From assembly GCA_900543875.1 (NCBI GenBank), contig UQSV01000001.1, positions 16,662 through 80,661 on the forward strand: 64,000 nt of DNA, read 5' to 3'. Positions 1-28,650 of the stretch are shown here, piece by piece. The translations under genes and the position numbers were made by a program. The notes below the pieces were generated by a model. That model saw nothing but the letters and a program-made list of their open reading frames with translations, did no database searches and was not told the origin of the DNA. The first letter of the stretch is position 1. The number at the start of each line of letters is the position of its first letter. The DNA comes from an uncultured Coriobacteriaceae bacterium (GTDB lineage Bacteria > Actinomycetota > Coriobacteriia > Coriobacteriales > Atopobiaceae).

Positions 1-879
1 GTCGCCCGAGACCACGGCCGAGTCGGCGTCGAGCATAAGCTGGGCAGCCTCGGCCCTCTTGGCAACATAGGACTCGTAGACGGCGTAGTCGGCATCGCCA
101 AATGCTTGCTTTGCCTTGCCAAGAAGGTCGCTCGCCTCGGCAATGAGCGACGCTGCCTCGTTGTCGAGCGACACGGCAACGTTGGCATCTTGGATCTGCG
201 TCTGCTCGCCCGCGAGGAACCGGGCGTATTCGTTTGCGGCGTCGCTCGCGGCCTTCGCCTTCTCGTCGGCGCTCTCAAGCCTGTCCCGCACCTGACCAAG
301 CAGCCCCAGCGCAGACGAGACCGCATCGTCGACGTCCACGATCACCTCACCGGCGCCAATCATCCCACGGCGTGCCTCGATGGATGCAGAGAGGGCGTCG
401 AGCACCTCCCTCCCGGAGTCGTCGAGATGGTCGGCCAGGGCCTGGGCGCGTTCGAGGTGAGACGAGGCCTCCGTGAGCAACGAGGTCGCGGAGTCAATCT
501 TTTCCGAGAGCCCCTCATGGGAGGAGGTGTCACCGCCAATCTGGGACGAGACGGCCTCGTTGAGCGGAACGATGGCGGCGTCGGCCTGGGCAACGCAATC
601 GATGGCATCGCCAAGCTCGGCTTTTGCCCTTGAGGCGCTCGAGAAGTGGCTCCACAGGAGATAGCCGGCGCCTCCAAGGGCGCCCACCACGAGCACCACG
701 ATGAGGGCGCGCAGGCCAAGGGGAGTCGCCACGCGGCCACGCGGGCGAGCGCGGCAGCGGTGCGGGCGGGCAAAGGAGCCCGCTCGGTGGGAGGCATCAT
801 GCAAGCCGCGAGCGGCGTCACGCCTGCTTCTTTTCACATTCGTCCCCTCGCGCAAGCGCCGCGGCGCATAAAGCTTCAT
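1..879 (-). CDS. Hypothetical membrane-anchored protein, 5' part only (gene continues past window start). Basic N-terminus, one TM helix (LGLRALIVVLVVGALGGAGYLLW), then a helical/coiled extracytoplasmic region
   Basis: The reading frame and ATG at 879 on the minus strand were found by hand. Codon use is GC3-rich throughout. The ORF is not in the track because it runs off the window. Confidence 0.45.
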   Translation of the reverse strand, partial: MKLYAPRRLREGTNVKRSRRDAARGLHDASHRAGSFARPHRCRARPRGRVATPLGLRALIVVLVVGALGGAGYLLWSHFSSASRAKAELGDAIDCVAQADAAIVPLNEAVSSQIGGDTSSHEGLSEKIDSATSLLTEASSHLERAQALADHLDDSGREVLDALSASIEARRGMIGAGEVIVDVDDAVSSALGLLGQVRDRLESADEKAKAASDAANEYARFLAGEQTQIQDANVAVSLDNEAASLIAEASDLLGKAKQAFGDADYAVYESYVAKRAEAAQLMLDADSAVVSGD

Positions 880-961
880 AATCTACGAGAGACGGGACAC
901 TAACCCGTCCACCACATGGTACCAGCATGAAGACGGGCCCACTCAAGGCAGGGGGAACGGC

Positions 962-2065
962 ATGGCTAGGCAGTCGTCAAAAAAGGGGCAGACGCTCGGA
1001 CATCGAGACATCACGCGCGCTCGTGTGGCCTTCAGGTTTCTCGACAGCAGCACGGCCCTGAACACCGACTACATCTATGACCACTTCTACAAGGGCTCGG
1101 TGACAAAGACCTCGCTGCACAAGACGCTCAAGCGCGACCGCGACGAGCTGGCAAGCGAGGGCATCTACTTAGTCGAGGAGCAGGACGGCACCGCCAAGAA
1201 GTGGCAGCTCGACGAGCGGCGCACGCGCAGCGACAAGATCCTCAGCAAGAGGCCGGCCATTCCCAGCGATGACGAGCTTCTGGCCCGCGGCTTCATCAAG
1301 TCGGACATCGACAAGCTCAAGATCATCGAGGAGTACGAAAAGAACCTCGACGACGCGGCTTGCATCTACGCCACCCTCATGCGCGCCCTTCTCGACGACC
1401 CACAGACCACCAGCCCGCGCGACCTCGGCTTTGCCATCGCCCGTCTGGCGCTGGGGACGGGCCGCGGCACCGGAGGCGTTGCCCCGCAGAAGGCTCCCTC
1501 TGAGGGTGGCAGGCACCTCTCCTACTTCACCAAGGCGCGCTACGAGCGCAAGCCCATCAAGATGATGTATCGCGCCAAGGCCGACGACGCCGCCATCGAG
1601 CGCGTCCTCAAGGTCTACGGGCTCTTCACGTTCCAGGACGGCATCTACGTGGTTGGCTCACGCTCCAAGAAGAACGAGGCCGACAGCATCCGCACCTTTA
1701 ACCTCGAGCGCGTCGAGGGCGAGCCCATCATCCTCGAGGACGAGCCCACCTACGAAATCCCCGCAGACTTCAGCGTCGACAAGTACCGCAAGCTTCCCTT
1801 TGAGATTGGTCCCGGCGACAGCGAGGGAAGGTCAATCAGCGTCACGTTCTACTTCCAGCGCGGCGTCAAGGAAAGCCTGCCCGACCGCATCAAGAAGCGC
1901 GACTCGTTCAAGACCCACCAGGGCGGCAGCGCAGAGCTCACACTCCACGGCGTGCGCGACATCGACAGGGCCGCGCGCTGGGCAATCACCATCGGAGCCA
2001 TACCGCTCGACCCACCTGAGCTTGTGGGCAAGTGGGAGGAGCTTCTCGAGGAGGCACGGTCATGA
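962..2065 (+). CDS. WYL-domain transcriptional regulator, PafB-like (N-terminal wHTH, WYL domain, C-terminal extension)
   Basis: WYL signature MMYRAKADDAAIERVLKVYGLFTFQDGIYVVGSRSKKNEADSIRTFNLERV. DeoR-like HTH near the N-terminus. RBS AGGGGGAA lies upstream of the ATG. Confidence 0.7.
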   Translation: MARQSSKKGQTLGHRDITRARVAFRFLDSSTALNTDYIYDHFYKGSVTKTSLHKTLKRDRDELASEGIYLVEEQDGTAKKWQLDERRTRSDKILSKRPAIPSDDELLARGFIKSDIDKLKIIEEYEKNLDDAACIYATLMRALLDDPQTTSPRDLGFAIARLALGTGRGTGGVAPQKAPSEGGRHLSYFTKARYERKPIKMMYRAKADDAAIERVLKVYGLFTFQDGIYVVGSRSKKNEADSIRTFNLERVEGEPIILEDEPTYEIPADFSVDKYRKLPFEIGPGDSEGRSISVTFYFQRGVKESLPDRIKKRDSFKTHQGGSAELTLHGVRDIDRAARWAITIGAIPLDPPELVGKWEELLEEARS

Positions 2066-3171
2066 CGGACAAGCCAAAGAGGCGCGGGCCGGGGCGTCCG
2101 CGCGAGCATCGCCTCGCCGAGGACCTCGCGGTGGCGCTGACGCTGCAGCGAAACGGCTACGTCACCAGCTATGGCGACCTCGCCCAGCTGCTCATGCCCA
2201 ACGAGGACTACGAAAAGGCAAAGGCACGAATCCAGGAGATCGTCGAGAACCTCGACAACACGAGCAGCCTTGGCGAGGGCGACTCCAAGCCCATCAACAT
2301 CGTCACCAGCACCATCAACTCGGACACGGACAAGCGCGTCGTCTCGCACATCAACGATGAGGGAAGGCCTCGCGCCCGAGGCATCCGCCTCTCCCCGCAG
2401 CAGGCCGCGGCGTGCAGCGAGGCCTTCTGGCGCCTGGGCGTTCCGCGCACCAACATGACCCGCGCAATCATCGAGAAAACGCTCTACCCCGAGGGCCTCG
2501 AGCTCAAGCCCGCCGACAACGAGTCCCTTCTCGAGAGTAACGAGCTCGTCTACCTCAAGTACTGCGCCTACTCCATCATCAAGGCCAAGCCCGGCAGGGA
2601 CGAGAACCACGTGAGGCAGCTCCCCGTCAGCTTCCTCTATGACGGCGAGAACGACGCAGACTTCAAGCGGAGGTCGACGCGCCTCGTCATTCCCCTCACG
2701 ATTCGCCTCAAGGACGGCGAGTGGGACATCGACGCCTTCGATTGCGACGCAAGGGATAACCGCACCTACCAGCTGAGCCGCATCACCGACCTCAAGCTTG
2801 TGGGCTCATGCAGCAGGGACGCGGACTATCGGGAGGCCGTGGCCTCCCAAGCACCCTGGGAGTGGGACGAGAACGACTACGTGAGCATCACGTACCTGGA
2901 CCCCGCAGACGTCGACTCGCTCAACTTCCTCCTCTCGCTTGACGGCGCGGCCTATTCGCATGAGGAGAACGGTCTGTCGGTAGTCAAGATTCCCTACAAT
3001 CGCGGCGACTGGCTCCCCCGCCAGCTCCTCTCGCTGCAGGGCAAGATCAAGATAGACGAGAGCGGCAAGAAGGCCCCGGAGCTTATCGAGGAGATGCAGG
3101 AGGTCGCCAAGCACGACCTGCTGGAAGCGAAGAAGGTCCGCGCCCGCAAGGCGCCGGCCGCCGAGAAGTAG
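2062..3171 (+). CDS. WYL-domain regulator, PafC-like, with an N-terminal AT-hook (KPKRRGPGRPR). Translationally coupled to the upstream gene through an ATGA overlap
   Basis: WYL signature RLVIPLTIRLKDGEWDIDAFDCDARDNRTYQLSRITDL. The start at 2062 (MTDKPKRR) overlaps the stop of the previous gene. Confidence 0.65.
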   Translation: MTDKPKRRGPGRPREHRLAEDLAVALTLQRNGYVTSYGDLAQLLMPNEDYEKAKARIQEIVENLDNTSSLGEGDSKPINIVTSTINSDTDKRVVSHINDEGRPRARGIRLSPQQAAACSEAFWRLGVPRTNMTRAIIEKTLYPEGLELKPADNESLLESNELVYLKYCAYSIIKAKPGRDENHVRQLPVSFLYDGENDADFKRRSTRLVIPLTIRLKDGEWDIDAFDCDARDNRTYQLSRITDLKLVGSCSRDADYREAVASQAPWEWDENDYVSITYLDPADVDSLNFLLSLDGAAYSHEENGLSVVKIPYNRGDWLPRQLLSLQGKIKIDESGKKAPELIEEMQEVAKHDLLEAKKVRARKAPAAEK

Positions 3172-3227
3172 GCGCGCCCCGCCGCCAGCAAGACGAGGAC
3201 GCAACACCAGTTAGCACTCAAACGCAA

Positions 3228-3263
3228 GGGCGCCCGGTGCGAGACCATCCGCACCGGGCGCCC
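3228..3263. terminator. Bidirectional GC-rich hairpin between the convergent WYL pair and dinG
   Basis: Hairpin GGGCGCCCGGTGCG-AGACCATC-CGCACCGGGCGCCC. Confidence 0.6.
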
Positions 3264-3270
3264 TGCTCGT

Positions 3271-6200
3271 CTACTTGTGGCTCGCGCACCAAGACTCGAG
3301 GTAGCGGCCAATCGTGTCGGTCCCCAGCGTCGTCACGTTCGAGGTGGGCATCGACTTGAGAAACACCTTGCCATAGCCCTTCGAGCTCACGCGGCTGTCG
3401 GCAAGCACGAGCACGCCCGAGTCGCTCGACGAGCGAATGAGGCGTCCCGCCGCCTGCTTGACGGCCAGCACCGCCTCGGGCAAGCTCCACCTGCGCCATG
3501 CGGCGCGGTCGCGCTCGCCACGCTCCTGCACGAGCGGATCCTTGGGGCTCGCAAACGGCAGCTTGGGAATCACCACGCAGCGCAGCGTATCGCCCGACGC
3601 GTCAAAGCCCTCCCAGAACGACTTGAGCGCCATGAGCGACAGGCTTTGGTCCTCGATGAAGCGCCTGCTCAGGCGGCGCACGGAGGAGCCCCTCTCTTGC
3701 ATGGCAACCGAGAGGCCGCGCTCGGCAAGCCTTGGCTCGAGTTTGGAATATGCCATCTCCATCTCGCGGCGGTTGGTGAACAGCGTGAGCACCGAGCCGC
3801 CCATCGATACGTGCACGTCAAACAGCAGTTCGACGAGGGCGTCGAGGTAGCCGCGCTCGCGCGGATCGGGCAGGTCCCTCACGGCCACGACGCTCATGTT
3901 GCGGTCGAAGTCGTAGCACGAGGGCAGCGAAACCTCGCGGTGCTGCGACGCGTCAAGGCGCGAGAGGCCCGTGGCGTCGTTGAAGTGGGCAAAGTTGCCG
4001 TCTACGCTCATCGTGGCCGAGCTGAACGTGACGCTGCGCATCTCGGGGTACCAGCGGTTGGCAAGCTCGGCGCCAATGTCGAGCTTCTCGGCCACCAGAC
4101 GCTCGCTACCCACGCGACGCTGCGTCATGGGCAGCTCGGCATAGAAGACGTAGGAGTCGTCGGTGGCATCGGTAATGACCTCCGCGGAGGCAATGAAGTC
4201 GCGCAGCTCGCGTACGGCGTCGTCAATCTGGGCGGCCACGGGGTTGGCCGGGTTGTCCTCGCTCGAGGTAAGCCCCGATATGATCTTGCCCGCGCCCTCG
4301 AGGCCGTGGCGCACGCCATCGAGCCTGCGCACGAACTCGCCCGCGGCCTGCACCACGTTGGCCCACTCGTCGCTTGCGCGAACGTCCTGGCCCAGCCATA
4401 GCGTCGCCATGTCGTAGCCGCCACGCGAGGCCAGGTTCGAGAGCTTTCGCACCTCGTCGAAGAAGTCTGCCGAGGACACCATGGCCGAGCTCGCTGAGCT
4501 CGCGGCCTTTGACAGCAGCCCCATCGCGGGCGTTGCCGCCTCGTGGGACGAGGCAAACGAGAGCGCCGTGCCAATGGCACCCGTCTTTGAGCCGCCGAGC
4601 TGCTCGAACAGCAGACGCACGCGCTCGGCGGAGACCTCGCGCGCCCACTGGCGACGCGCCTCGCTCTCGAACGAGTGGGCCTCGTCGATGACCCAGTTGC
4701 GGATGGGCGGAAGCACCATGCCGTCTGCCTCGACGTTCTTGAGCAGCAGTGAGTGGTTCGTCACCACAACGTCTGCCGCGGCAGCGCGGCGGCGCGCGCC
4801 ATGGAGCAGGCAGAGGTTGGGGAAGAACGGGCAGTCGCGGCGCTTACAGTCCCTGTAGGTCGTGGTTAGCAGGCGGCGCGGCACGCTCCCCCATCGAATG
4901 CCAAGGGCATCGATGTCGCCCTCGACGGACTGGCACACGTAGGCATAGGTTACGGCGATGGCCGTCAGCATGTCGGCGGCAACGACGTTGCGCGAGCGGC
5001 CGTTGGTCATGGCCTCCTCGATGGGAAGGTCTGCCGTAACGGCGCGGTTCAGGCGGTTGAGACAGGGATAGTGGTCATATCCCTTGAGGCAGGTGTAGGT
5101 GAGGCCATCGGGAAGGGCGGCGGCGAGCGCGGGCAGCTCGTGAGTCACGAGTTGGTCGGTGAGTGCGTTGGTCTTGGTGGCAACGCCGCAGGTGACGTTG
5201 TTGAGCTTGGCATAGATCGCAAGCGGCAGCAGGTAGGCCATCGACTTGCCCACGCCCGTCCCCGCCTCGATCGCGCGAAACGTCTGGGTCTCGAGCGCCT
5301 CGCGCACCTCCTGGGCCATGTCGGCCTGGCTCGGGCGCGGCTCAAAGCTCTCATACATCTTGCTCACCACGCCCGAGGGCCCAAAGGCACGGGCGATCTT
5401 CTCGGCGCTCGGGGCATGGGGCATGACCTCGGGGTTATCGACGTCGGCGCGGGCTTGGGCGGGAGCGGATGCCACGAGCTTGTGACGGGCGGCAACCAGC
5501 GAGAACTCCGCATCGGGGTCCTCGAGCGCCAGGAACGACAAGATAGGGCGATAGGCCCACTCCACCTCGGGCTGCATGCTGGAGAGCGTAGCGAGAAGGC
5601 CACGCGGCAAGTCGGTGAGGGCGCACAGGATGATGCGCCACATGCCCGTCAGCGCCTCGACGTCATCGAGGGCGCGGTGCGAGACGCTGGCGCAGCCAAA
5701 GGCCTCGGCCATGTCCTGCAGCTTGTGGGTCGCAAGGCGCGGCAGCGCGATGCGCGAGAGGGCCAGGGTGTCGACCCACAGGTCGCTGACCTCATGCCCC
5801 CCGGGAACGCGCTCGATAAAGGTGCGGTCAAAGGTCGCGTTGTGGGCAAGCACCGGGGCACCGCCCACGAACTCGGCAAGCTGGGCCACGGCCTCGCGGG
5901 GCGCGGGTGCGTCCGCCACGTCGAGGTCGGTGATGTGCGTGAGCGCCTGGATGTTCTTTGGGATTGGCTGCCCCGGGTTCACGAACGTGCGGAACGTGTC
6001 GACGATCTCGCGGCCGCGCAGGCGGGCGGCGGCAATCTCGGTCAGTTGGCACTCGGAGAACGACAGACCCGTCGTCTCGGTGTCGAGCACCACGACATCG
6101 TCCTCTATCAGGCCAAAGTCCTGCGTGCGAGCGCGCTCGGCCAGCGTGCGGTAGCCAGCCTCGACCTCCTTGGGCGTGTCGGGCAGCAAGATCTCGCCTA

Positions 6201-6309
6201 GCAGGTCGCGTGGCTGCGTGGCCTTCTCGATGGAATCTGACAAATGCTTCTCACTCTCTATCGACATGGCGAGGGACGGACCCATGTTGCGGAGCTGAGT
6301 CCGCGGCAA
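3271..6309 (-). CDS. dinG: Bifunctional DnaQ-like 3'-5' exonuclease / DinG-family ATP-dependent DNA helicase
   Basis: Exonuclease motifs: VVVLDTETTGL, HNATFDRTF, HRALDDVEAL. Helicase motifs: Walker A GTGVGKS, DEAH box VIDEAHSF, and an FeS-cluster cysteine set (CLKGYDHYPC...C). TTG start; the exact start is uncertain. Confidence 0.85.
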   Translation of the reverse strand: MPRTQLRNMGPSLAMSIESEKHLSDSIEKATQPRDLLGEILLPDTPKEVEAGYRTLAERARTQDFGLIEDDVVVLDTETTGLSFSECQLTEIAAARLRGREIVDTFRTFVNPGQPIPKNIQALTHITDLDVADAPAPREAVAQLAEFVGGAPVLAHNATFDRTFIERVPGGHEVSDLWVDTLALSRIALPRLATHKLQDMAEAFGCASVSHRALDDVEALTGMWRIILCALTDLPRGLLATLSSMQPEVEWAYRPILSFLALEDPDAEFSLVAARHKLVASAPAQARADVDNPEVMPHAPSAEKIARAFGPSGVVSKMYESFEPRPSQADMAQEVREALETQTFRAIEAGTGVGKSMAYLLPLAIYAKLNNVTCGVATKTNALTDQLVTHELPALAAALPDGLTYTCLKGYDHYPCLNRLNRAVTADLPIEEAMTNGRSRNVVAADMLTAIAVTYAYVCQSVEGDIDALGIRWGSVPRRLLTTTYRDCKRRDCPFFPNLCLLHGARRRAAAADVVVTNHSLLLKNVEADGMVLPPIRNWVIDEAHSFESEARRQWAREVSAERVRLLFEQLGGSKTGAIGTALSFASSHEAATPAMGLLSKAASSASSAMVSSADFFDEVRKLSNLASRGGYDMATLWLGQDVRASDEWANVVQAAGEFVRRLDGVRHGLEGAGKIISGLTSSEDNPANPVAAQIDDAVRELRDFIASAEVITDATDDSYVFYAELPMTQRRVGSERLVAEKLDIGAELANRWYPEMRSVTFSSATMSVDGNFAHFNDATGLSRLDASQHREVSLPSCYDFDRNMSVVAVRDLPDPRERGYLDALVELLFDVHVSMGGSVLTLFTNRREMEMAYSKLEPRLAERGLSVAMQERGSSVRRLSRRFIEDQSLSLMALKSFWEGFDASGDTLRCVVIPKLPFASPKDPLVQERGERDRAAWRRWSLPEAVLAVKQAAGRLIRSSSDSGVLVLADSRVSSKGYGKVFLKSMPTSNVTTLGTDTIGRYLESWCASHK

Positions 6310-6327
6310 GCCCGCGCCTGGCCAAAG

Positions 6328-7299
6328 CTAGTTCTGGGTCGTGCGGGCACCGCGCTCGAGTGCGAGCTCAATGAGCTTGCGGCAAAGCTCCGGAAATCCC
6401 AGACCCATGCGACGGGCGGCGTCCGGCAGCAGCGACTGTGGCGTCATGCCCGGAATCACGTTCGTCTCGATGATGTAGGGAATGCCGTCCGCATCGACCA
6501 TGAAGTCGCTACGCGAGGCACCCGAGCAGCCCAGCGCCCGGTGGGCCCTGCAGGCAAGCTCCTTGGCGCGCTCGACGACGTCCTCGGGCAGCTCGGGGGG
6601 GATCACGTGGTGCTTCGACGGGTCGTCGTACTTGACGCTCAGGTCGTAGAACTCGGTCTCATAGCGCACCTCGATGGCCTCGAGCGCCTGCGTGTGTTCG
6701 TTGCCCAGCACCGGCACCGTGATCTCGGTGCCCACCACGGCTGCCTCGACGAGAATCCTCGTGTCGAACTTGAAAGCCTCCTCGATGGCATCGGCGAGCT
6801 CAGAGGCCTCCTTCACGTGCGTGATGCCATAGGACGAGCCGCTCGACACCGGCTTCACAAAGCACGGCAGGCCAACGCGCCCCACCAGGTCAACGACGTC
6901 GTACTCGTCGCCCCTGAGCAGGCAGACCTCCTTTGGGGTGGGAATACCGTGCTCGCGGTAGATGTCCTTGGCCATGGCCTTGTCGGTGGCAAGGGCGCTC
7001 GCGAGCACACCAGAACACGTGTACGGTATGCCGAGAAGTTCGAGGAAGCCCTGTACGCAGCCGTCCTCGCCATAGCGGCCGTGCAGAGCCACGAAGGCAA
7101 CGTCGTAACCTCCGTCGGCGATGTTGTGCACGAAGTCCTTGTCGGCGATGTCGAGCAGATCGACCTGCACAAAGCCCGCCTCGCGCAGGGCCTGGGCACT
7201 CGCCGTGCCGCTGGAGATGGACACCTCGCGCTCGTCAGACCAGCCACCACACAGAACTGCGACCTTCTTGCTTTCGATACCCTCCATGTGGTGCTCCAT
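6328..7299 (-). CDS. ddl: D-alanine--D-alanine ligase
   Basis: KKVAVLCGGWSDEREVSISSG and ATP-grasp motifs. The internal start (MEHHMEG / MEGIESKK) is favoured over the ORF start at 7314. Lies 18 bp upstream of dinG, in a likely operon. Confidence 0.85.
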   Translation of the reverse strand: MEHHMEGIESKKVAVLCGGWSDEREVSISSGTASAQALREAGFVQVDLLDIADKDFVHNIADGGYDVAFVALHGRYGEDGCVQGFLELLGIPYTCSGVLASALATDKAMAKDIYREHGIPTPKEVCLLRGDEYDVVDLVGRVGLPCFVKPVSSGSSYGITHVKEASELADAIEEAFKFDTRILVEAAVVGTEITVPVLGNEHTQALEAIEVRYETEFYDLSVKYDDPSKHHVIPPELPEDVVERAKELACRAHRALGCSGASRSDFMVDADGIPYIIETNVIPGMTPQSLLPDAARRMGLGFPELCRKLIELALERGARTTQN

Positions 7300-7407
7300 T
7301 CCGCATCGACACACCGCCTCTAAAACTCGAGGAAGATGCTGCGATACACTCGTTGCTGCACAATTTCGTGCATTGCCTCACTAACGTCACGCCAGAAAGG
7401 CCGCGAC

Positions 7408-8466
7408 ATGCCCCTTTATGATATCGACTCCAGCAAGTCCAAGGTCGACCTTCGCAACGTTTCCCACGAGCAGCTCGTCGAGCTCCTCGAGGGGCTTGGC
7501 TACCCCAAGTTCCGCGCGAAGCAGGTCGAGGATTGGGTGTGGAAGCACCACGTCACCGACTTCCAGGACATGACTAACGTCCCTGCCAAGCTGCGCGCCG
7601 ACCTTGCCGAGCGCTGCACCCTTGGCGGAACGGTCGAGGTTGCCCGCCAGATCTCCAACGACGGCTGCCGCAAGTACCTTCTCGGCTATGATGACGGCAC
7701 CCAAGCCGAGTGCGTTGGCATGCCCAACCGCAACCGCCTCGCCGTCTGCGTCTCCACCCAGGCAGGCTGCCGCATGGGCTGCGTCTTCTGCGCCACGGGC
7801 CAGGGTGGCTTCTCCCGCTCCCTCAAGGCAACCGAGATCTACGACCAGGTCATGCATGTGAGCGAGGACTTCCAAACCCGCGCCTCCTCCGTTGTCATGA
7901 TGGGCCAGGGCGAGCCGTTCAACAACTACGACGAGGTGCTTAAGGCCCTGCGCATGCTCAACTCTCCCGAGGGCGCCGGCATTGGCGCACGCCACCTCAC
8001 GGTATCTACCTGCGGCATCATTCCCATGATTCGCCGCTTTGCCAAGGAGCCCGAGCAGTTCACGCTGGCCGTCTCGCTGCATTCCGCCGTCCAGTCGACG
8101 CGCAACACCATCATGCCGGGCGTCAAGAAGTACACCCTCGCAAGGCTGCATGACGCCATGGCCGAGTACGTCGAGGCCACCGGCCGCCGGCCGACCTACG
8201 AGTACGCCCTCATCGGGGGAGTCAACGACAACAACCTCGAGCTTGACGCCCTGTGCGACTTCACGCGTGGCACGCTTGCCCATGTGAACCTCATCCAGCT
8301 CAACGACCTCGAGGGCTCCAAGCTTAAGCCCTCCACCGCCGAGCGTGCCGAGCAGTTTGTGCGTCGCCTTGCTCAGGTTGGCGTCGAGGCCACGATCCGT
8401 AACTCGCGCGGCAACGACATCGATGCCGCCTGCGGCCAGCTGTCTCAGAAGCACCGCATCGAGTAA
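7408..8466 (+). CDS. rlmN: 23S rRNA / tRNA m2A methyltransferase RlmN (radical SAM)
   Basis: Radical-SAM CxxxCxxC motif (CRMGCVFCATG). Conserved MPLYDIDS... start at 7408. Confidence 0.85.
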   Translation: MPLYDIDSSKSKVDLRNVSHEQLVELLEGLGYPKFRAKQVEDWVWKHHVTDFQDMTNVPAKLRADLAERCTLGGTVEVARQISNDGCRKYLLGYDDGTQAECVGMPNRNRLAVCVSTQAGCRMGCVFCATGQGGFSRSLKATEIYDQVMHVSEDFQTRASSVVMMGQGEPFNNYDEVLKALRMLNSPEGAGIGARHLTVSTCGIIPMIRRFAKEPEQFTLAVSLHSAVQSTRNTIMPGVKKYTLARLHDAMAEYVEATGRRPTYEYALIGGVNDNNLELDALCDFTRGTLAHVNLIQLNDLEGSKLKPSTAERAEQFVRRLAQVGVEATIRNSRGNDIDAACGQLSQKHRIE

Positions 8467-8487
8467 GCACGAGCCTCATACATACGT

Positions 8488-8532
8488 AAAGAGGGGAGTA
8501 GCGAACCCATGTTCGCTACTCCCCTCTTCTAT
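8488..8532 (+). terminator. Rho-independent terminator after rlmN
   Basis: Hairpin GAGGGGAGTAGCGAACCCATGTTCGCTACTCCCCTC followed by TTCTATT. Confidence 0.7.
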
Positions 8533-8783
8533 TATATGTTTCCACAGCTAGAAGCCTATGTTCTTCCATTGCTGGTCTACCCATTCCCTATTTTCTCTTG
8601 CAGCCTGCTCACTCGAGTATTGCAAGGCGGGCTCCATATAGCCCCTCAAGAGATACAGGGCGAGGTCAGACGTAACGCGTCCTGCTTGGCGCACACTATC
8701 ACGCGCGCGCTCATCAAGCAGAACCTTCCAGACAAGCGAGCAGCCTGCCGAGGCAACAGCGAGGCTTCTCAGAGCTCGGGTCG

Positions 8784-9665
8784 CTACTCCCACGTTTCGT
8801 CCTCTTCCTCAACCTCAGCACCCGGCTGAATCTGAGCCAGGATCCTCGCTAGCTGGTCCTCATCCTTGAACTCAATCTCGATCTTGTTCTTGCCGCGAAC
8901 CTGCTTGACCTTAACGTTGGTATCAAGCATGCGCCTAAGCTCTCGGGCAGCGCGCTTAAAAGACTGAGGAGCTGCCTGGCGAGGCTTTACCTCGGCGCGC
9001 TCGACAGAAAAGAGCGGAGCAAGATGTTCTGTCTGCCTCACCGTCAAGCTCTCCGTGACAACCTTCTGGGCAAGCTTGATTCGACCTTCCTCGGTTGGCA
9101 CGGCAAGGATGGCGCGAGCGTGACCAGCAGTCAGCAGACCCTGCGCCATCATGTCTTGAACCTCAGCGGGAAGATCCATGAGTCTCAACGTGTTTGCGAT
9201 TGCAGAACGAGACTTCGAAAGAATCTTGGCAAGACCCTCTTGGGTAAATCCCTGAGACTCAAGAAGCTGCTTGTAGCCCTTCGCCTCTTCAATGGGAGAC
9301 AGGTCTGCACGTTGCAGGTTCTCAATGAGGGCAAGCTGAAACACTTCGTCATCATTGATTTCACGAACAACTGCAGGAATCTCCTTGAGTCCTGCCAGCT
9401 TGCTAGCCTGGTAGCGACGCTCGCCTGCAACAATCTCGTACTTGTTACCCTTCTTGCGAACAAGAATTGGCTGAAGCACACCATTCTGCTTTATCGAGTC
9501 AGCAAGCTCTGCAAGCGCGTCCTCGTCAAAGTTCTTGCGGGGCTGACCAGGGTTGCGAACAATCTTTTCGATTGGAAGCGTTGCCTCCGGTTCGCTGCCC
9601 GTCTCAGCATTGGCTTCGCTAATCAGGGCATCGAGGCCTCTTCCAAGTCCACCACGCTTAGCCAC
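8784..9665 (-). CDS. parB: Chromosome partitioning protein ParB (Spo0J)
   Basis: ParB box GERRYQA and HTH. Markedly lower GC than its surroundings. Confidence 0.9.
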   Translation of the reverse strand: MAKRGGLGRGLDALISEANAETGSEPEATLPIEKIVRNPGQPRKNFDEDALAELADSIKQNGVLQPILVRKKGNKYEIVAGERRYQASKLAGLKEIPAVVREINDDEVFQLALIENLQRADLSPIEEAKGYKQLLESQGFTQEGLAKILSKSRSAIANTLRLMDLPAEVQDMMAQGLLTAGHARAILAVPTEEGRIKLAQKVVTESLTVRQTEHLAPLFSVERAEVKPRQAAPQSFKRAARELRRMLDTNVKVKQVRGKNKIEIEFKDEDQLARILAQIQPGAEVEEEDETWE

Positions 9666-10458
9666 GACGAATCACCTCTCTAGCAAGTCCACGGTAGGCA
9701 ATGGCACCCTTATTCGTTGCAGAGTACATTGCAATCGGCAGACCATGGCTTGGAGCCTCAGAAATCTTGATGCTTCGAGGAATCAGAGTCTTGAACATCT
9801 TGTTTCCAAAGTACTTCTTTACTTCTTCAACAACCTCGTTAGAAAGCGTAGTGCGCTTGTCATACATTGTCATGAGCACGCCAAAGACGTCAAGATCCCT
9901 ATTCAGACTCGACTTAACGAGCTTCATCGATTCAAGAAGCTTCGTTACGCCTTCGAGTGCGTAGTACTCGCACTGAATCGGAATTAGCAAGCCGCTTGCT
10001 GCACATAGAGCGTTAATTGTCAGAAGGCCAAGTGAGGGAGGGCAGTCGATGAAAACGTAATCGAACTCATCCTTAACCTCATCAATGAGATTCTTGAGAA
10101 TGCTTTCGCGTGCAATCTTGCTCACAAGCTCAATTTCCGCACCCGCAAGCTGAATAGTTGCAGGAACAACAAACACACGAGATTCTGGAGTATCGACAAT
10201 GAGGTCACTGATTGGATAACCGTCGAGAAGAGCGTCATAAATGTCGTGATCGAGCTCATCCTTGTCGATACCATAGCCACTTGTTGTGTTTCCCTGAGGG
10301 TCAAAATCAATAACTAGGCACTTCTTGCGCTCTTCTCCAAGAGCTGCAGACAGGTTAATTGCAGTTGTCGACTTTCCGACGCCACCTTTTTGGTTGATAA
10401 TTGCCAGAACCTTGGTAGGCTTCGTGGGATTGCTGCGTTTTACGTCCTTATAACCCAT
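9658..10458 (-). CDS. parA: Chromosome partitioning ATPase ParA (Soj)
   Basis: Deviant Walker A KGGVGKST. Low GC. Confidence 0.9.
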   Translation of the reverse strand: MGYKDVKRSNPTKPTKVLAIINQKGGVGKSTTAINLSAALGEERKKCLVIDFDPQGNTTSGYGIDKDELDHDIYDALLDGYPISDLIVDTPESRVFVVPATIQLAGAEIELVSKIARESILKNLIDEVKDEFDYVFIDCPPSLGLLTINALCAASGLLIPIQCEYYALEGVTKLLESMKLVKSSLNRDLDVFGVLMTMYDKRTTLSNEVVEEVKKYFGNKMFKTLIPRSIKISEAPSHGLPIAMYSATNKGAIAYRGLAREVIRRG

Positions 10459-10490
10459 TACTTTCCAATCTACCAGTCGATTTGCTCCAC

Positions 10491-10506
10491 TGTTTCACGT
10501 GAAACA
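10491..10506. promoter_or_regulatory. parS: parS centromere site, perfect palindrome TGTTTCACGTGAAACA
   Basis: Exact match to the canonical parS consensus. Lies 2 bp from the rsmG stop, between rsmG and parA. Confidence 0.85.
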
Positions 10507-10507
10507 C

Positions 10508-11353
10508 TCATCGATTAGCCAGTGGATGATTTCGAGCCTCGCCGTTCTTTCTTGGTAGCTTTACTCTACTCTTCTTAACCTTCTTGTATACAAAGATCTC
10601 TCTATGTCCCAAATCATTTGGAAGTTCGAATGTTTCACGTGAAACATTCTCAAAACCGCACATCTGTGCAACCTTAGATGCATCAGCAAGCTCTTCGTGC
10701 TCAGGATTCGCCTTTCCAAAGAAGAGATAGCCACCCTTCTTAACGTAAGGCTCAGCATATTCAATCAAAATGTCGAGCTTTGCTAGAGCACGCGCAGTCA
10801 CACCATCATAGATGCGACCAGAAGTCTTAACGAATTCTTCGAGACGCCCATGATAAGCAGAAACCCTGTCAGACATACCAAGCTCGTCAACAAACTCTTT
10901 GCATGCGTTGACCTTCTTGCCAACAGAGTCAAGTAAGTCAATGTCAAACTCACTGACGCAAGCAAGAGGAATACCAGGAAAGCCACCACCGGTACCCATA
11001 TCAAGGAAACGAGCTCGTTGGTTAAGACCGATGGCCTCAGAGATAACCTTTGCAAACAGAAGTGAATCAAAAGCATGGAGGATAAGACCATCAGGCATCG
11101 TTCGAATGCTCGTAAGGTTAACGACCTCGTTCTTCTTATACATGAGATAGAGATCTGCAATAACCATCTCAATCTGAGAATTGGTCAAATTGAGTGAATA
11201 GCTGTCAGACATCTCCTGAAGCGTTCTAAGGGCATCTTTAACAGTATAGGTGGAATTAGTCACGAAAGTTGTTTTCGTGTCACAGAGAGCCTCTGAGAGA
11301 CTCGAATTTAGTTCTTTGAACTCTCTTTGACTTAAAGTCATGAAGCTACCCAA
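10508..11353 (-). CDS. rsmG: 16S rRNA m7G527 methyltransferase RsmG (GidB)
   Basis: SAM-binding motif LDMGTGGGFPGIPLA. About 40% GC. Confidence 0.85.
   Translation of the reverse strand: MGSFMTLSQREFKELNSSLSEALCDTKTTFVTNSTYTVKDALRTLQEMSDSYSLNLTNSQIEMVIADLYLMYKKNEVVNLTSIRTMPDGLILHAFDSLLFAKVISEAIGLNQRARFLDMGTGGGFPGIPLACVSEFDIDLLDSVGKKVNACKEFVDELGMSDRVSAYHGRLEEFVKTSGRIYDGVTARALAKLDILIEYAEPYVKKGGYLFFGKANPEHEELADASKVAQMCGFENVSRETFELPNDLGHREIFVYKKVKKSRVKLPRKNGEARNHPLANR
10631..10646. promoter_or_regulatory. parS: Second perfect parS site (TGTTTCACGTGAAACA) inside the rsmG coding sequence
   Basis: Exact palindrome. Confidence 0.85.
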
Positions 11354-11939
11354 TCACTTTGACAAAACTTCCCGAGACGGGAACTCTTGTCAGGAACTTA
11401 TGTCTGAGTTTGATTGAGCTGCGAATGCTTCTAGTCTACTTGAAGTAGGGTCACCAAGCTGGAAATGTTCGGAGAATTACAGAGCTTGGAAATGGCCAGA
11501 TTAACTAGGTCCTAAAGCCCACTAGAGACCAGATACATATCGAGCCAAACCTAGCGTTCACTTCCGGCATGGCACAAAGCCAGAAACATAGAGAAATCAT
11601 CAAGCCGCCAAAGCAGTCAGAGCCACTCGAGACATTGAGAGAGCTATAAGAAGACTTGCGGATGAAGTACAGTTTACAGGTAGACAGGGGGCCAGAATCA
11701 ATAACCTCATAGCTATCAAGCGGAGCTGATTAGATACCAGATACGGCAACCAAGTATCGAGGGCAGCCCCAACCAAAGACTCGTCTCATCTATCAAATCT
11801 CAAGACGCGCAGCAGCTTGAACAAACTATACCGCACGCGCAACAACAAAGATGTGCGCAAACGGCTATCGATTCACATGAAAAGGACGCGGTATATCTCT
11901 GACACAAAAGAGCCACCGAGAGCCGCATCAGTTAGCACA

Positions 11940-11978
11940 CAAAAAAAGGAGGCCCGAAGGCCTCCCAGTAAAACTCCG
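11940..11978 (-). terminator. Minus-strand terminator downstream of jag
   Basis: GGAGGCCCGAAGGCCTCC hairpin followed by an A-run on the plus strand, which is a T-run on the minus strand. Confidence 0.55.
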
Positions 11979-12024
11979 AGTACTAAACCCAGCCCAGAAC
12001 TACGCAAACGGCACCGCGCGCAGG

Positions 12025-12576
12025 CTATTCACCCTTAACCGGAGTGATGACAACATAGCGCTCGGGATCGGTGCCCTCAGAGTGAGTCGTCACCTCAACG
12101 GAGTCCCTCAGGGCAAGGTGAACCAGACGGCGCTCATAGGCATTCATAGGGGCAAGGCGCATAGCGCGGCCAGACTTCACGGCCTTCTGGGCGCTGGAGC
12201 GAGCCATACCCTGGACCTTGTCCCTGCGACGGCTCTTATAGCCCTCGATGTCGACAACGATGGGATAGTGGAAGCCGATACGCTTGTTGAGAAGCGAGGT
12301 AAAGACAACCTGCAGGGCATCGAGGGTGACACCGTGACGACCAATGAGGATGGCAAGGTCGCCGCCGCTCACGTCGAGGATGAGCTCGCCCTCGTCGCCA
12401 TCATACTCATCAATCGAACAGGTGTTCTCGCCAAAGCAGGCGAGCAGGGAGCGCAGAATCTCAATGGCAACGTCGGCCACGACGTCGAGCTGCTCGTCCT
12501 CAAGCTCGCCCTTCTCCTCAAAGGCGGCCTTGATGGCCTCGAACTCAGCGCCCTTCTCCTGCATTTCCTCACTCAT
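12025..12576 (-). CDS. jag: Jag/KhpB RNA-binding protein (KH + R3H domains)
   Basis: R3H-like C-terminus NAYERRLVHLAL. Conserved position after yidC. Confidence 0.7.
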   Translation of the reverse strand: MSEEMQEKGAEFEAIKAAFEEKGELEDEQLDVVADVAIEILRSLLACFGENTCSIDEYDGDEGELILDVSGGDLAILIGRHGVTLDALQVVFTSLLNKRIGFHYPIVVDIEGYKSRRRDKVQGMARSSAQKAVKSGRAMRLAPMNAYERRLVHLALRDSVEVTTHSEGTDPERYVVITPVKGE

Positions 12577-12657
12577 GGCAACCTCCAGATAGACAATGTC
12601 GCGCACCTTCTGTTGAGAGGGCGCGCGACATGGAATTACGTAGTGTCAGCGGATCCG

Positions 12658-13416
12658 CTAGCCCTTCTTGTGGGGACGCGGCTTGTGCTGCTTGCGCACG
12701 ACGTCAACCGTGATGGGCTGGTTGGCCATGCGCTCAGCCTCGTCGGCCTTGGCCTTCTCCATGACCTTGCGGGTGATAAAAACCTGCTGCACGACACCCC
12801 AGGCAGAGGACGTGACGTAGTACAGAACGACACCCACGGGCACGTTCCAGCCGAACCAGATCATCATGAGGGCCATGACCACACCCATGATCTTGGTCTG
12901 GCTGGCCTGCGGGGAGTCGGGCTGGGTGTTGAGCAGCATCGGGACGAGCGTGAGCACGCCAAAGGCAAGCACGAACAGCACGTAGACCCAAGCGCCCAGG
13001 AAGCCGAGCTGCATCACCGCGTCGTTGGTGGTGACGGCGAGCGACTCGAAAATGCCATAGAAGTGGGCGCCCTCGGGAATCTGATAGCGCAGGACCGAGA
13101 ACAGTGCAAAGAAGACGGGCATCTGGATGAGGGTGGGCAAGCAGCCTCCCAGCGGGTTGAACTTGTTCTCGCTGTAGAACTTCTGCATCTCCTCGTTGAG
13201 ACGCTGGGGATCGTCGGCGTAGCGCTCCTGAAGCTCCATGAGCTTGGGCTGGAGCACCTGCATCTTGGCAGTCGAACGCGTCGAGCTCACGGTGAGCGGC
13301 GTCAGCAGAATACGAATGATGGCGGTCAGGACGATGACGGCCAGGCCCCAGTCTCCTACGACGTTAGCGAGAAACGTGAGGATCTGGGCAATGATGTAGA
13401 TAATCCCATCCCACAT
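12658..13416 (-). CDS. yidC: Membrane protein insertase YidC
   Basis: MWDGIIYIIAQIL... N-terminus typical of actinobacterial YidC, with multiple TM segments. Confidence 0.85.
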   Translation of the reverse strand: MWDGIIYIIAQILTFLANVVGDWGLAVIVLTAIIRILLTPLTVSSTRSTAKMQVLQPKLMELQERYADDPQRLNEEMQKFYSENKFNPLGGCLPTLIQMPVFFALFSVLRYQIPEGAHFYGIFESLAVTTNDAVMQLGFLGAWVYVLFVLAFGVLTLVPMLLNTQPDSPQASQTKIMGVVMALMMIWFGWNVPVGVVLYYVTSSAWGVVQQVFITRKVMEKAKADEAERMANQPITVDVVRKQHKPRPHKKG

Positions 13417-13441
13417 GGACAGTACCTCCGGTTGCCCGCCC

Positions 13442-13684
13442 CTAGGGGACGGGATCATAGCCTCCCTTATGGCGTGGATTGCATCTGACGACCCTCGTCA
13501 GAGCAAGCCAACCACCTCTGAGTGCGCCATATCGAGAAAGTGCCTCTATGGTGTACTCAGAACAGGTTGGTGTGTAAATGCAGCAAGGGGGGAGAACAGG
13601 CGAGATGAACCGCCGATACACCCTCACCAAGAAGATGAGGGGTCGTGCGAGAACACTCGGCCTGCCTTCCCCCGTTTTGCTCAT
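13442..13684 (-). CDS. yidD: Membrane protein insertion efficiency factor YidD
   Basis: Conserved [22 protein letters not shown] motif. The internal start is directly adjacent to the rnpA stop. Confidence 0.7.
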
Positions 13685-13686
13685 AC

Positions 13687-14007
13687 CTAAATTCGCTCCA
13701 CAAGCTTCGCCAAGGCGGCCGCCACCTCGGTTGAGGAGGCAGCTCGCGTTGCCGGAGTCGAGAAGAGAATTACCTCGTACCCGTCGAGCGGAAAGCCTAC
13801 CTGCTGAGCCGCGGCTCGAAGCACGCGCTTGCACCGGTTGCGACACACGGCGTTGCCGAGCCTCTTGGCACAAACAAAGGCGACGCGGCTCCGATCCTCC
13901 TGCTCGCTCTCCATGACGGTGAGCCTCACGAGCCGGTGGTTGAGCCGCTTTCCACCCCGAAAGACCTTCTCAAAATCCTGCTTGGACTTGATGGTCTCCA
14001 TGGGCAT
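13687..14007 (-). CDS. rnpA: RNase P protein component
   Basis: Position after rpmH. Basic protein. Internal start MPMETIK chosen. Confidence 0.75.
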
Positions 14008-14009
14008 TC

Positions 14010-14144
14010 CTAGACGGTGAGCTTCTTGCGGCCCTTGGCGCGACGACGGGCGAGAACGGCGCGGCCGTTCTTGGTGGCCATGCGAGCACGGAAGCCGTGG
14101 CACTTGGCGCGCTTCCTCTTATTGGGCTGGTACGTACGCTTCAT
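14010..14144 (-). CDS. rpmH: 50S ribosomal protein L34
   Basis: [44 protein letters not shown]. Confidence 0.95.
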
Positions 14145-14195
14145 AGCAAATCCTCCTGAGTGACACAGATCACTGCGTAAGCAGTCAAGCCCCAA

Positions 14196-14656
14196 GATTG
14201 TAGGGGTCTGAGATAACCGAGGTCAAGTTGATTATTGACTTTTTCACGAGGTCAACTTGCATGAGCGGCCCGTGAAAACATCCCTCAGAGGCCTTCGACC
14301 ACAAGCGAGGGGCGCCAAGATGTCAACAACCACAACAGGTTGCGCCGGCCGCTGGTGAAAAGATGCCACAACTTGCCCAACTTTCCAACATCTTTCATCA
14401 AGAGAAGAAAACATGGCGATAACTTTTCACCGCTGATGGAAAATCTCAGCTCAGAAGTGAAATTTTCTGTTCTTCTCGGCTATCTTTTCATTCGCTTGCA
14501 CACGATATTCCAGCAGGTTATCAACACGCTTTCATCGTTTGTTAATAACTTTTCGCCTGTGGAAGAAACATTGCGCAAGTTTTCACCATTTGACGGAAAC
14601 TTGTTAAAAACAGTGAAATGTAGTGAAAAGCAAGCGCGCGGACGAAAGAAGCACCC
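14196..14656. promoter_or_regulatory. oriC: oriC-associated DnaA-box cluster A (between rpmH and the inserted gene)
   Basis: At least six TTTTCAC-containing boxes, including TGTTTTCACG, TTTTCACCG, TTTTCACCA and TTATCAACA. AT-rich. Confidence 0.55.
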
Positions 14657-15865: not shown

Positions 15866-16002
15866 CGGGTTTTCGACACGCGCTTGCCCCGCTCGCCAAG
15901 TTTTCAACAATCACGATGGATGAAAACCCACGCTCCCATATAATGAGTTTTCATCAAACACGTGGTTAAAGCACCAAACGGCTACGACAGGATGTCAGCA
16001 AC
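15866..16002. promoter_or_regulatory. oriC: DnaA-box cluster B / dnaA promoter region
   Basis: Four GTTTTC(N)ACA-type boxes: GGGTTTTCGACACG, AGTTTTCAACA, GGGTTTTCATC (reverse complement), AGTTTTCATCAAACACG. Confidence 0.6.
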
Positions 16003-26870: not shown

Positions 26871-27082
26871 TTTTCAAATTTTCTTACCAGGCCCCCTTCA
26901 GTTACAGTGAGGTATAACGGCAATTGGACGCCCGCGAGGCGCTGGTGCGCTGTAGCCGCGTTGTCAGCTTGAACCCGCCCTCGTCCCGCGCCACCCGATT
27001 AGTTTGGGACAACTGTTGCGTTTTACTGTCTCCCGATGCAAATGCTATGGGAGAAAGGCGAAAAGAGAAGAGGGGGTCCAGG

Positions 27083-28546: not shown

Positions 28547-28650
28547 TCTACCTGCGGGTATCTAAAGTTGGCACATGTGTGACCTATCAGTTTGGCTTCA
28601 GCTCCCTGACGATAAGCTCGGTTAGCTGGCTTTCGCTGGAGGAGGTCACC

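Follow-up and report, generated by a model that had tools for sequence, protein, structure and literature searches.

A probable Coriobacteriia-type PafBC: two coupled WYL-domain regulator genes, the second with a basic Gly-Arg-Pro arm, at an origin-proximal site

In this study, a 64-kb stretch of DNA (the window) from Parolsenella, a gut actinobacterium of the class Coriobacteriia, was investigated around a pair of adjacent regulator genes and the ddl-dinG operon that faces them. The features on which the analysis rests are as follows.

877..926, + strand: putative promoter/leader of the pair, with a -10-like CATAAT at 877-882 and the 12-mer CATGGTACCAGC at 915-926
962..2065, + strand: pafB-like gene (ORF1), 367 aa, read from the sequence
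2048-2054, + strand: GAGGAGG, the Shine-Dalgarno (ribosome-binding site) for ORF2, read directly
2062..2065, + strand: ATGA stop/start overlap of ORF1 and ORF2, read directly
2062..3171, + strand: pafC-like gene (ORF2) from its ATG, 369 aa, read from the sequence
2071..2103, + strand: AT-hook-like basic arm KPKRRGPGRPR, residues 4-14 of ORF2 (conservation and model)
3224..3266, no strand assigned: G+C-rich 14-bp hairpin in the 99-bp spacer (RNA fold)
3271..6309, - strand: DEDDh exonuclease-DinG helicase (RNase_T 8.9e-25 at residues 73-220; Helicase_C_2 1.3e-35)
6328..7314, - strand: ddl, D-Ala-D-Ala ligase (NCBIfam PRK01372, 337.8 bits against a cut-off of 243)
ORF1 product, + strand: conserved N-terminal extension; wHTH ~17-85; linker; WYL 189-252; WCX-like C-terminus (Pfam and family profile)
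ORF2 product, + strand: arm 1-16; wHTH 17-96; helical linker 112-173; WYL 183-246; WCX 259-331; long C-terminal helix (Pfam, profile and AF2 model)

A reading made earlier from the sequence alone had described an ATGA-coupled gene pair with a WYL domain in each product, and this was borne out, as ORF1 (33.3 bits, E 5e-8) and ORF2 (27.8 bits, E 2.5e-6) both exceed the Pfam gathering score of 21.8 bits and contain the motifs that it quoted, YGL..YVVG..RTFNLERV and W.IDAFD..RTYQLSRI. Tight coupling or overlap of the two genes was also noticed in the relatives L005, L006, L007 and L009, and the B-then-C order with coupling is the same in 9 loci. Mutual similarity of ORF1 and ORF2 was undetected by BLASTP and reached a probability of only 22% in hhalign, with no significant paralogy beyond the WYL core. 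NCBIfam gave no model for either protein, and the NCBI labels for such proteins are only 'WYL domain-containing' or 'YafY family'.

On the opposite strand, the DinG with an N-terminal DEDDh exonuclease that had been read behind ddl agrees with the RNase_T match and with the position of ddl 18 bp upstream in the same orientation, a gap that measures 3-60 bp in all loci; the NCBIfam DinG and dinG_rel models match the helicase with scores under their cut-offs. The same reading called the arrangement head-to-head, which we correct here: the two operons meet tail-to-tail, their 3' ends facing across a 99-bp spacer (3172-3270). The spacer hairpin (dG -48 kcal/mol, z -4.8; 0 of 200 shuffles equally stable) is likely a two-way terminator, and a sigma-70 and terminator consensus scan of positions 600-3400 returned nothing, including no U-tract at the hairpin. 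The neighbourhood, comprising ddl, rlmN, parAB, rsmG, jag, yidC, rnpA, dnaA, dnaN, recF and gyrBA, is conserved across Atopobiaceae, and the pair occupies the same chromosomal site in 9 unfused loci, with identities across loci of just 24-36% for the regulators and 57-83% for the neighbours. Inheritance of the locus is vertical, and its site near the origin is fixed. No pafA or proteasome genes adjoin the pair in any locus, and Coriobacteriia have been reported to be without actinobacterial signature genes (PMC4255298). Rfam disclosed no RNA family in positions 1-17000 of the window.

The proposed likeness to PafB-PafC, the two subunits of the activator that turns on DNA-repair genes in mycobacteria, was upheld by a profile search against these two proteins, in which ORF1 relates to PafB and ORF2 to PafC, with gene order, coupling and fusions in agreement. 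Family profiles were needed for this relationship, as single sequences were insufficient: phmmer searches of the PDB with ORF1 or ORF2 alone gave zero matches at E up to 10. The ORF2-family profile (58 sequences) matched M. smegmatis PafC at full length (7p5x_AX, residues 18-315, 2.7e-15) as well as the PafC half of the fused Arthrobacter PafBC (6sj9, residues 339-661), with E-values of 2.7e-15 to 5e-26 for PafC and PafBC overall, whereas the match to PafB was weaker and partial (8e-11) and those to DriD, BrxR and CapW were weaker by at least 8 orders of magnitude. The ORF1-family profile found fused PafBC (6sj9, 2.3e-11), M. smegmatis PafB (7p5x_AY, 3.4e-7) and PafC (7.6e-3), and with one outgroup added it matched over the full length (PafB 12-324). 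Among the 58 ORF2 relatives, 19 match Pfam HTH_PafC and 16 match Pfam WCX, and one (P0055) is labelled 'proteasome accessory factor C' in IMG. The PafBC reading, as judged from sequence comparison, holds at the level of family profiles and not of single sequences.

Several lineages have natural fusions of ORF1-like and ORF2-like proteins (644-679 aa), with the halves in the same order; in one of them (P0057) the ORF1 profile lies on residues 8-323 (hhalign 99.6%) and the ORF2 profile on 343-654. Such same-order fusions argue for one complex. For the ORF2 structure we used the AF2 model of the 58-sequence run (pLDDT 86.7), the 15-sequence run being poor (pLDDT 62), and all three of wHTH, WYL and WCX are present in it. 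All of the top 30 Foldseek matches of this model are wHTH-WYL-WCX regulators, led by PafB/PafC 9fnd and matched at full length, although Foldseek did not tell PafBC apart from DriD, CapW or BrxR, as TM-scores come out low with the multi-domain arrangement. ORF1 is likewise predicted from its sequence to consist of a wHTH, a WYL domain (Sm-fold) and a WCX domain (ferredoxin-like), as in the PafBC subunits, and its linker carries a species-specific insertion of about 25 residues.

With reference to the residues of known function, Arg46 and Arg50 in helix 3 of PafB recognise the GTC in the -26 element and are near-invariant in actinobacteria (PMC8635444). In the recognition helix of ORF1, SLHKTLKRDRDEL, an ungapped alignment around RD..EL...GI places K54 at R46 and R58 at R50, a conservative replacement at one of the two positions; both residues are invariant within the close family, and the wing-tip W70 of PafB is not retained. 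Binding of ssDNA requires R181, Y196, R204, R208, R211 and R214 of PafB, and R201 and R204 of PafC (PMC11804915). According to the alignment, ORF1 keeps four of the six PafB residues (R181/Y196/R208/R214 correspond to R214/Y229/R244/R250), while R204 is replaced by A240 and the middle arginine, R211, by N247. In ORF2, R204 of PafC is kept as R240 and the middle arginine R201 is replaced by Q237, a position at which the family consensus is Arg.

The N-terminus of ORF2, MTDKPKRRGPGRPREHRL, begins at an ATG that is backed by homologue N-termini, by conservation of the arm and by a 369-aa NCBI protein (WP_301828698.1). The sequence-only reading saw in KPKRRGPGRPR a textbook AT-hook standing in place of a canonical wHTH. 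The first part of this stands in a reduced form: the stretch is AT-hook-like, with a GRP core, basic flanks and disorder (residues 1-16 have low pLDDT), and it is not the textbook RGRP. The second part was dropped, since the AF2 model continues after the disordered residues with helix 17-27, strand 34-36, helices 37-44 and 50-69 and a beta-hairpin wing at 81-96, and the family profile aligns this region to the PafC HTH; an intact winged HTH thus follows directly, and the arm is therefore an addition and not a replacement. G11-R12-P13 is invariant in 15 relatives, conservation of G11 and R12 reaches 90% or more among the 58 ORF2-family sequences, and GRP occurs in 51 of the 130 unfused matches, with a similar basic G-R stretch in many others among those listed. 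A basic arm also occurs in the linker of fused forms. We speculate that the Gly-Arg-Pro arm gives an extra, probably minor-groove, DNA contact absent from canonical PafC.

Upstream of the pair, the 12-mer CATGGTACCAGC contains the palindrome TGGTACCA and lies at -47, -47 and -55 from the ATG in the window, L001 and L003, respectively, and only there. It has one exact copy in the window and 7 sites at up to two mismatches, no excess over chance. We considered it as a family-wide operator and rejected it, because it is common to just 3 of 13 loci and has a single exact copy in the window. Promoters of the PafBC regulon are of the RecA-NDp type, tTGTCRgtg-N8-TAnnnT, with a -26 element and a -10 but no -35. 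The pattern TGTCRG-N11-TANNNT had 0 matches in the 64 kb, which says little because only 0.27 would be expected by chance. Repair-gene promoters such as those of recA or uvrA do not fall within the window. In the ddl-rlmN intergenic alignment, the sole conserved element is a -10-like TGCGATACACT for rlmN, and no PafBC-type element was detected there.

Taken together, we consider it probable that the pair is a Coriobacteriia-type PafBC, namely a heterodimeric wHTH-WYL-WCX activator of the LexA-independent DNA-damage response. It is a lineage-specific and very divergent variant of a known regulator, not described before in this lineage. By analogy with M. smegmatis PafBC, ssDNA produced by damage would bind in the tunnel of the two WYL/WCX modules, the PafB-like HTH would then read the upstream promoter element, and the PafC-like HTH would dock on region 4 of the housekeeping sigma factor, known as 'sigma adaptation' (PMC8635444, PMC11804915). 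Whether such a pair serves a repair regulon or a defence module had been left open, and our data lean towards repair, because the genes lie in a vertically inherited, origin-proximal housekeeping block without defence genes. A bolder version, to which we give a low probability, is that the Coriobacteriia PafBC represents an ancient damage activator independent of the Pup-proteasome, in which the sigma-docking PafC gained a minor-groove arm, promoters are bipartite (with K54/R58 of PafB reading an altered -26 element and the arm holding an AT-rich stretch) and the dinG adjacency is a functional link, so that DinG would, for example, produce or remove the ssDNA signal. If true, such bipartite recognition would amount to sigma adaptation by a modified mechanism.

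SiwR, a WYL regulator, controls neighbouring genes, and the pair might resemble it as a heterodimer with local targets, either ddl-dinG or a divergent gene of the membrane or Peptidase_M28-like type, instead of having a global role as damage-response activator. This we regard as unlikely. The adjacency of dinG in 9 unfused loci speaks for it, as does its survival through an inversion in L013, where a fused regulator follows dinG in the same orientation, 82 bp downstream, and so does the other flank of the pair, where the upstream, divergent gene is Peptidase_M28-like in L007, L008, L009, L010 and L012. However, in the window the pair and dinG adjoin by their 3' ends alone, with the strong hairpin between them, some 4 kb separate the pair from the ddl promoter region, which holds as its sole conserved element the -10 of rlmN, dinG is not a neighbour of the regulator in L010 and L011, and the upstream gene in the window encodes a different membrane protein. 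Moreover, the whole block from rnpA to dinG is conserved, and the adjacency may reflect only general origin-near synteny.

The extreme divergence of ORF1 and ORF2 from one another, together with the homodimeric state of most characterised WYL regulators (DriD, CapW, BrxR), would also suit two independent homodimers that share an operon and have separate targets; the same-order fusions in several lineages, the strict co-inheritance and translational coupling of both genes in every locus, and the specific relation of each protein to its own PafBC subunit (ORF1 to PafB, ORF2 to PafC) make this quite improbable. A BrxR/CapW-type repressor pair over an anti-phage defence module is the least probable reading and was dropped on gene context, for although generic CRISPR-associated WYL models of PADLOC match both proteins (4e-11, 3.8e-11), its type IV DinG (Csf4) model matches the helicase (2.3e-94) and Foldseek finds the fold common to CapW and BrxR, PADLOC called no defence system in the window beyond these generic models, no cas, BREX, CBASS or other defence genes were found in the window or the 13 related loci, whose neighbours are housekeeping genes at a fixed, vertically inherited site, the BrxR/CapW profile E-values (4e-6 to 5e-3) fall behind those for PafC/PafBC, and the helicase scores better on housekeeping DinG models (480.9 bits).

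To our knowledge, all studies of PafBC have dealt with Actinomycetes, in which the regulator is linked to the Pup-proteasome locus. The PafBC reading preferred here would add the gut-associated class Coriobacteriia to its range, set the regulator apart from the proteasome context, and offer a natural test of its essential features, as a base-reading arginine and a WYL arginine have each been substituted. This reading also draws attention to a conserved basic arm on the subunit that does not bind DNA in mycobacteria. It brings no new principle; its value is comparative, with improved annotation, and its interest modest.

Compared with known systems, the AT-hook is the RGRP motif of the eukaryotic HMGA type, and N-terminal arms that contain GRP precede the HTH in bacterial proteins such as Hin recombinase. 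The ORF2 arm is like these in being a disordered GRP core with Lys/Arg flanks immediately before an HTH, and differs in carrying PGRPR in the window where relatives have RGRGRP, its minor-groove or AT-rich binding being putative. BrxR and CapW, the WYL repressors of BREX and CBASS defence islands, have the same fold, and CapW also senses ssDNA (PMC11662680), but they are homodimeric repressors beside defence operons. DriD of Caulobacter crescentus (PDB 8TP8, 9PFQ) is an ssDNA-sensing activator of an SOS-independent damage response with the same three-domain fold (Foldseek 2.3e-10); it differs as a homodimer from a single gene, and its profile match is 5.7e-7 against 2.7e-15 for PafC. PafBC itself (M. 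smegmatis, M. tuberculosis; fused in Arthrobacter aurescens; PDB 7P5X, 9FND, 6SJ9) is typically linked to the pafA/Pup-proteasome locus, which gave it its name and is not a functional requirement, whereas the pair studied here is origin-proximal beside ddl-dinG, has subunits much more diverged from one another, shows no RecA-NDp motif in the 64-kb window (0.27 expected) and bears a conserved arm of about 16 residues ahead of helix 1 of the PafC-like subunit, for which M. smegmatis PafC has no room, as its residue 18 aligns to profile position 26. Nevertheless, both have adjacent B-then-C genes that are sometimes fused, a wHTH-WYL-WCX build in each subunit, profiles in which ORF1 comes closest to PafB and ORF2 to PafC, and the recognition-helix motif F/L-x-R-D-x-x-E-L-x-x-x-G-I, in which R58 corresponds to R50.

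The window originates from a Parolsenella species (Atopobiaceae, Coriobacteriia), and the pafB-like gene (ORF1), the pafC-like gene (ORF2) and their neighbors are arranged as follows.

962..2065, + strand: ORF1, 367 aa
2062 (ATG) to 3171, + strand: ORF2, 369 aa
3271..6309, - strand: dinG, 1012 aa, with an RNase_T/DEDDh exonuclease domain (residues 73-220) and DinG-type helicase domains
6328..7314, opposite strand to the pair: ddl, with the dinG product gene beginning 18 bp after it

The ATGA at 2062-2065 is shared as ORF1 stop and ORF2 start, with GAGGAGG 8 nt upstream, and the 99 bp between the pair and dinG hold a 14-bp G+C-rich hairpin (3224-3266; dG -48 kcal/mol, z -4.8). What the sequence-only reading observed at this locus was confirmed: the WYL motifs it cited were found in both proteins, which scored 33.3 bits (ORF1) and 27.8 bits (ORF2) against a Pfam WYL gathering score of 21.8 bits. 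The pair and dinG, described there as head-to-head, are actually tail-to-tail. Near-identical proteins in NCBI (WP_301828696.1, WP_301828698.1) bear no more specific name than 'WYL domain-containing protein', 'YafY family protein' or 'helix-turn-helix transcriptional regulator'. The ORF1 homologues WP_301828696.1 and WP_293824439.1 are annotated with 346 aa, 21 residues fewer than the 367-aa ORF (window 962-1024). M1, A2, S5, K8, G9, L12, G13, H14, R15 and D16 of the extra segment MARQSSKKGQTLGHRD do not vary among relatives with 40-55% identity, so the longer start is probably right, and the PafB-like subunit too probably has a conserved N-terminal extension. In the alignment, an insertion of ~25 residues, IKSDIDKLKIIEEYEKNLDDAACIY, in the ORF1 HTH-WYL linker (window 1283-1372, residues about 108-137) is missing from all other close relatives.

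With single sequences, phmmer of ORF1 and ORF2 against the PDB gave no relevant match, NCBIfam holds no model for either regulator, and no similarity between the two proteins was detectable. Both families evolve fast and are small: a word-indexed search of 5.8 billion proteins yielded just 7 (ORF1) and 15 (ORF2) relatives. At the profile level the proposed PafBC analogy was upheld, with homology to specific subunits. The ORF1 profile of 7 sequences, without outgroup, matched the fused PafBC of Arthrobacter aurescens (PDB 6sj9) at 2.3e-11 and was closer to M. smegmatis PafB (7p5x_AY, 3.4e-7) than to PafC (7.6e-3); once one more distant relative was added, the match spanned PafB residues 12-324. 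Used in an exhaustive HMMER search, the ORF2 profile collected 452 proteins with E no higher than 1e-3, and a 58-sequence ORF2 alignment matched the PafC half of 6sj9 (residues 339-661; whole-sequence E 5e-26), being closer to full-length M. smegmatis PafC (residues 18-315, 2.7e-15) than to PafB (8e-11, partial only), DriD (5.7e-7) or BrxR and CapW (4e-6 or weaker). Among these 58 relatives, Pfam WYL was matched by 53, HTH_PafC by 19 and WCX by 16, and IMG calls one relative from the Atopobiaceae 'proteasome accessory factor C'. The AlphaFold2 model of ORF2 from the same alignment is confident (pLDDT 86.7), and its best 30 Foldseek matches in the PDB are all wHTH-WYL-WCX regulators, led by PafB and PafC of 9fnd.

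Proteins of 644-679 aa also occur among the ORF2-profile matches, aligned through their C-terminal half. In one of them, P0057, residues 8-323 align with the ORF1 profile (hhalign probability 99.6%) and residues 343-654 with the ORF2 profile, and these proteins are natural fusions of an ORF1-like and an ORF2-like half, with the same half order as in pafB-pafC and fused PafBC. The fused genes occupy the corresponding chromosomal site, adjoining the same Peptidase_M28-like gene, and in every unfused locus the two genes overlap at start and stop or nearly abut. The fusions and this gene spacing provide good indirect evidence that both products would form one complex.

The sequence-only reading held that an AT-hook replaces the wHTH in the second subunit. 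The basic arm itself, MTDKPKRRGPGRPREHRL (AT-hook-like stretch KPKRRGPGRPR at residues 4-14, window 2071..2103), is real and translated: the start positions of ORF2 homologues coincide, G11-R12-P13 are invariant in 15 relatives, and conservation of G11 and R12 reaches at least 90% across 58 sequences. GRP is present in 51 of 130 unfused matches, a similar basic G-R stretch (GRK, GRR, GRG) in many others listed, and the fused forms carry the same basic Gly/Arg stretch within the linker, where A. aurescens PafBC has RARKR. The replacement was wrong, as a winged HTH follows the arm. The model shows residues 1-16 disordered, then helices 17-27, 37-44 and 50-69, a strand at 34-36 and a beta-hairpin at 81-96; residues 17-96 are thus a predicted winged HTH, and this stretch aligns with the PafC HTH. 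M. smegmatis PafC cannot carry a comparable arm, because its first aligned residue, 18, falls at profile position 26. In the mycobacterial initiation complex, DNA is read by the PafB HTH only, and the PafC HTH sits on region 4 of sigma-A with one tangential backbone contact (PMC8635444). Since that HTH does not read DNA, an extra DNA contact is conceivable, and we conjecture that the arm could add one.

Residues were compared with M. smegmatis in the register fixed by an ungapped motif, TLKRDRDELASEGI in the window and MFERDKNELRDLGI in PafB; the residues needed for ssDNA binding are taken from PMC11804915.

Counterparts of PafB and PafC residues in the window
PafB R50, reads GTC of the -26 element: R58
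PafB R46, reads GTC of the -26 element: K54
PafB W70, wing tip: not conserved
PafB R181, Y196, R208, R214, needed for ssDNA binding: R214, Y229, R244, R250 (kept)
PafB R204, R211, needed for ssDNA binding: A240, N247 (not kept)
PafC R198, R204, WYL arginines: R234, R240 (kept)
PafC R201, WYL arginine: Q237 (not kept)

Throughout the close ORF1 family K54 and R58 do not vary, and the ORF2 family consensus retains Arg at the PafC R201 position. By this comparison the ligand groove appears largely, though not fully, kept, and the DNA element read by the pair may differ from the mycobacterial one.

The locus is origin-proximal core chromosome and not an island. Nine related loci share the order of the pair (+), dinG and ddl (-), rlmN (+), and parB, parA, rsmG, jag, yidC and rnpA (-), even when identity of the PafC-like protein drops to about 24%; across these loci the regulators show 24-36% identity versus 57-83% for the neighbors. 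Further along lie dnaA, dnaN, recF, gyrB, gyrA, typA, dnaB and purine-synthesis genes, and the locus lacks pafA, proteasome and defence genes in the window and its relatives. The dinG adjacency is persistent and not universal, since dinG is not adjacent in L010 and L011; in L013 an inversion places the fused gene co-directionally with dinG, 82 bp downstream of it. General synteny, and not a functional tie, may account for the adjacency. DinG (3271-6309, -) pairs a DEDDh exonuclease domain that seems intact (DTETTG, HNATFD, HRALDD) with a Walker A, a DEAH box and clustered cysteines (C..C, then CKRRDCPFFPNLC). This cluster resembles the 4Fe-4S site in DinG of the E. coli type; the staphylococcal exonuclease-bearing DinG is not known to have such a cluster.

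Elsewhere in the window, a 402-aa protein (14657-15865, +) in the rnpA-dnaA interval, an unusual place for an extra gene, matched only GHKL/HATPase_c (1.8e-10), with no NCBIfam match. G+C falls to 0.46-0.55 at 9700-12000, spanning parA, rsmG and the rsmG-jag spacer, versus about 0.64 elsewhere. A 540-aa protein without Pfam or NCBIfam match, followed by a 2503-aa ORF (26924-36090, +), along with a sortase (53470-54507), suggests large surface proteins. SpaA/TQ-domain adhesins occur upstream of the pair in related loci.

The RecA-NDp pattern had no match in the window, with only 0.27 expected by chance. The window and two of the closer relatives (L001, L003) share an exact 12-mer with palindrome TGGTACCA, placed 47-55 nt before the ATG; the other loci lack it. 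In the ddl-rlmN spacer the only conserved element is -10-like, and no Rfam family was found in window 1-17000. In window 7336-7410, the -10-like element, TGCGATACACT (about 7340-7351), falls inside the longest rlmN ORF, so rlmN probably starts at the ATG near 7408 (MPLYDID...); likewise, Ddl conservation begins at residue 10. In several relatives (L004, L005, L007, L009, L010; e.g. L007 8770-8790), GAGTATACGTC, whose reverse strand GACGTATACTC has a -10-like TATACT, is conserved before the divergent Peptidase_M28-like gene. The window's own upstream gene differs: it lies on the minus strand, encodes a membrane-anchored coiled-coil protein and continues past the left end.

PafBC is reported from nearly all actinobacterial species (PMC8635444), and we found no paper naming it together with Coriobacteriia. 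The pair is classified, on its sequence relationships, as a probable lineage-specific variant of this known regulator. It differs from canonical PafBC in that it is unlinked from the pupylation locus, its PafC-like subunit bears a conserved basic arm, and a base-reading residue of its PafB-like subunit is altered.
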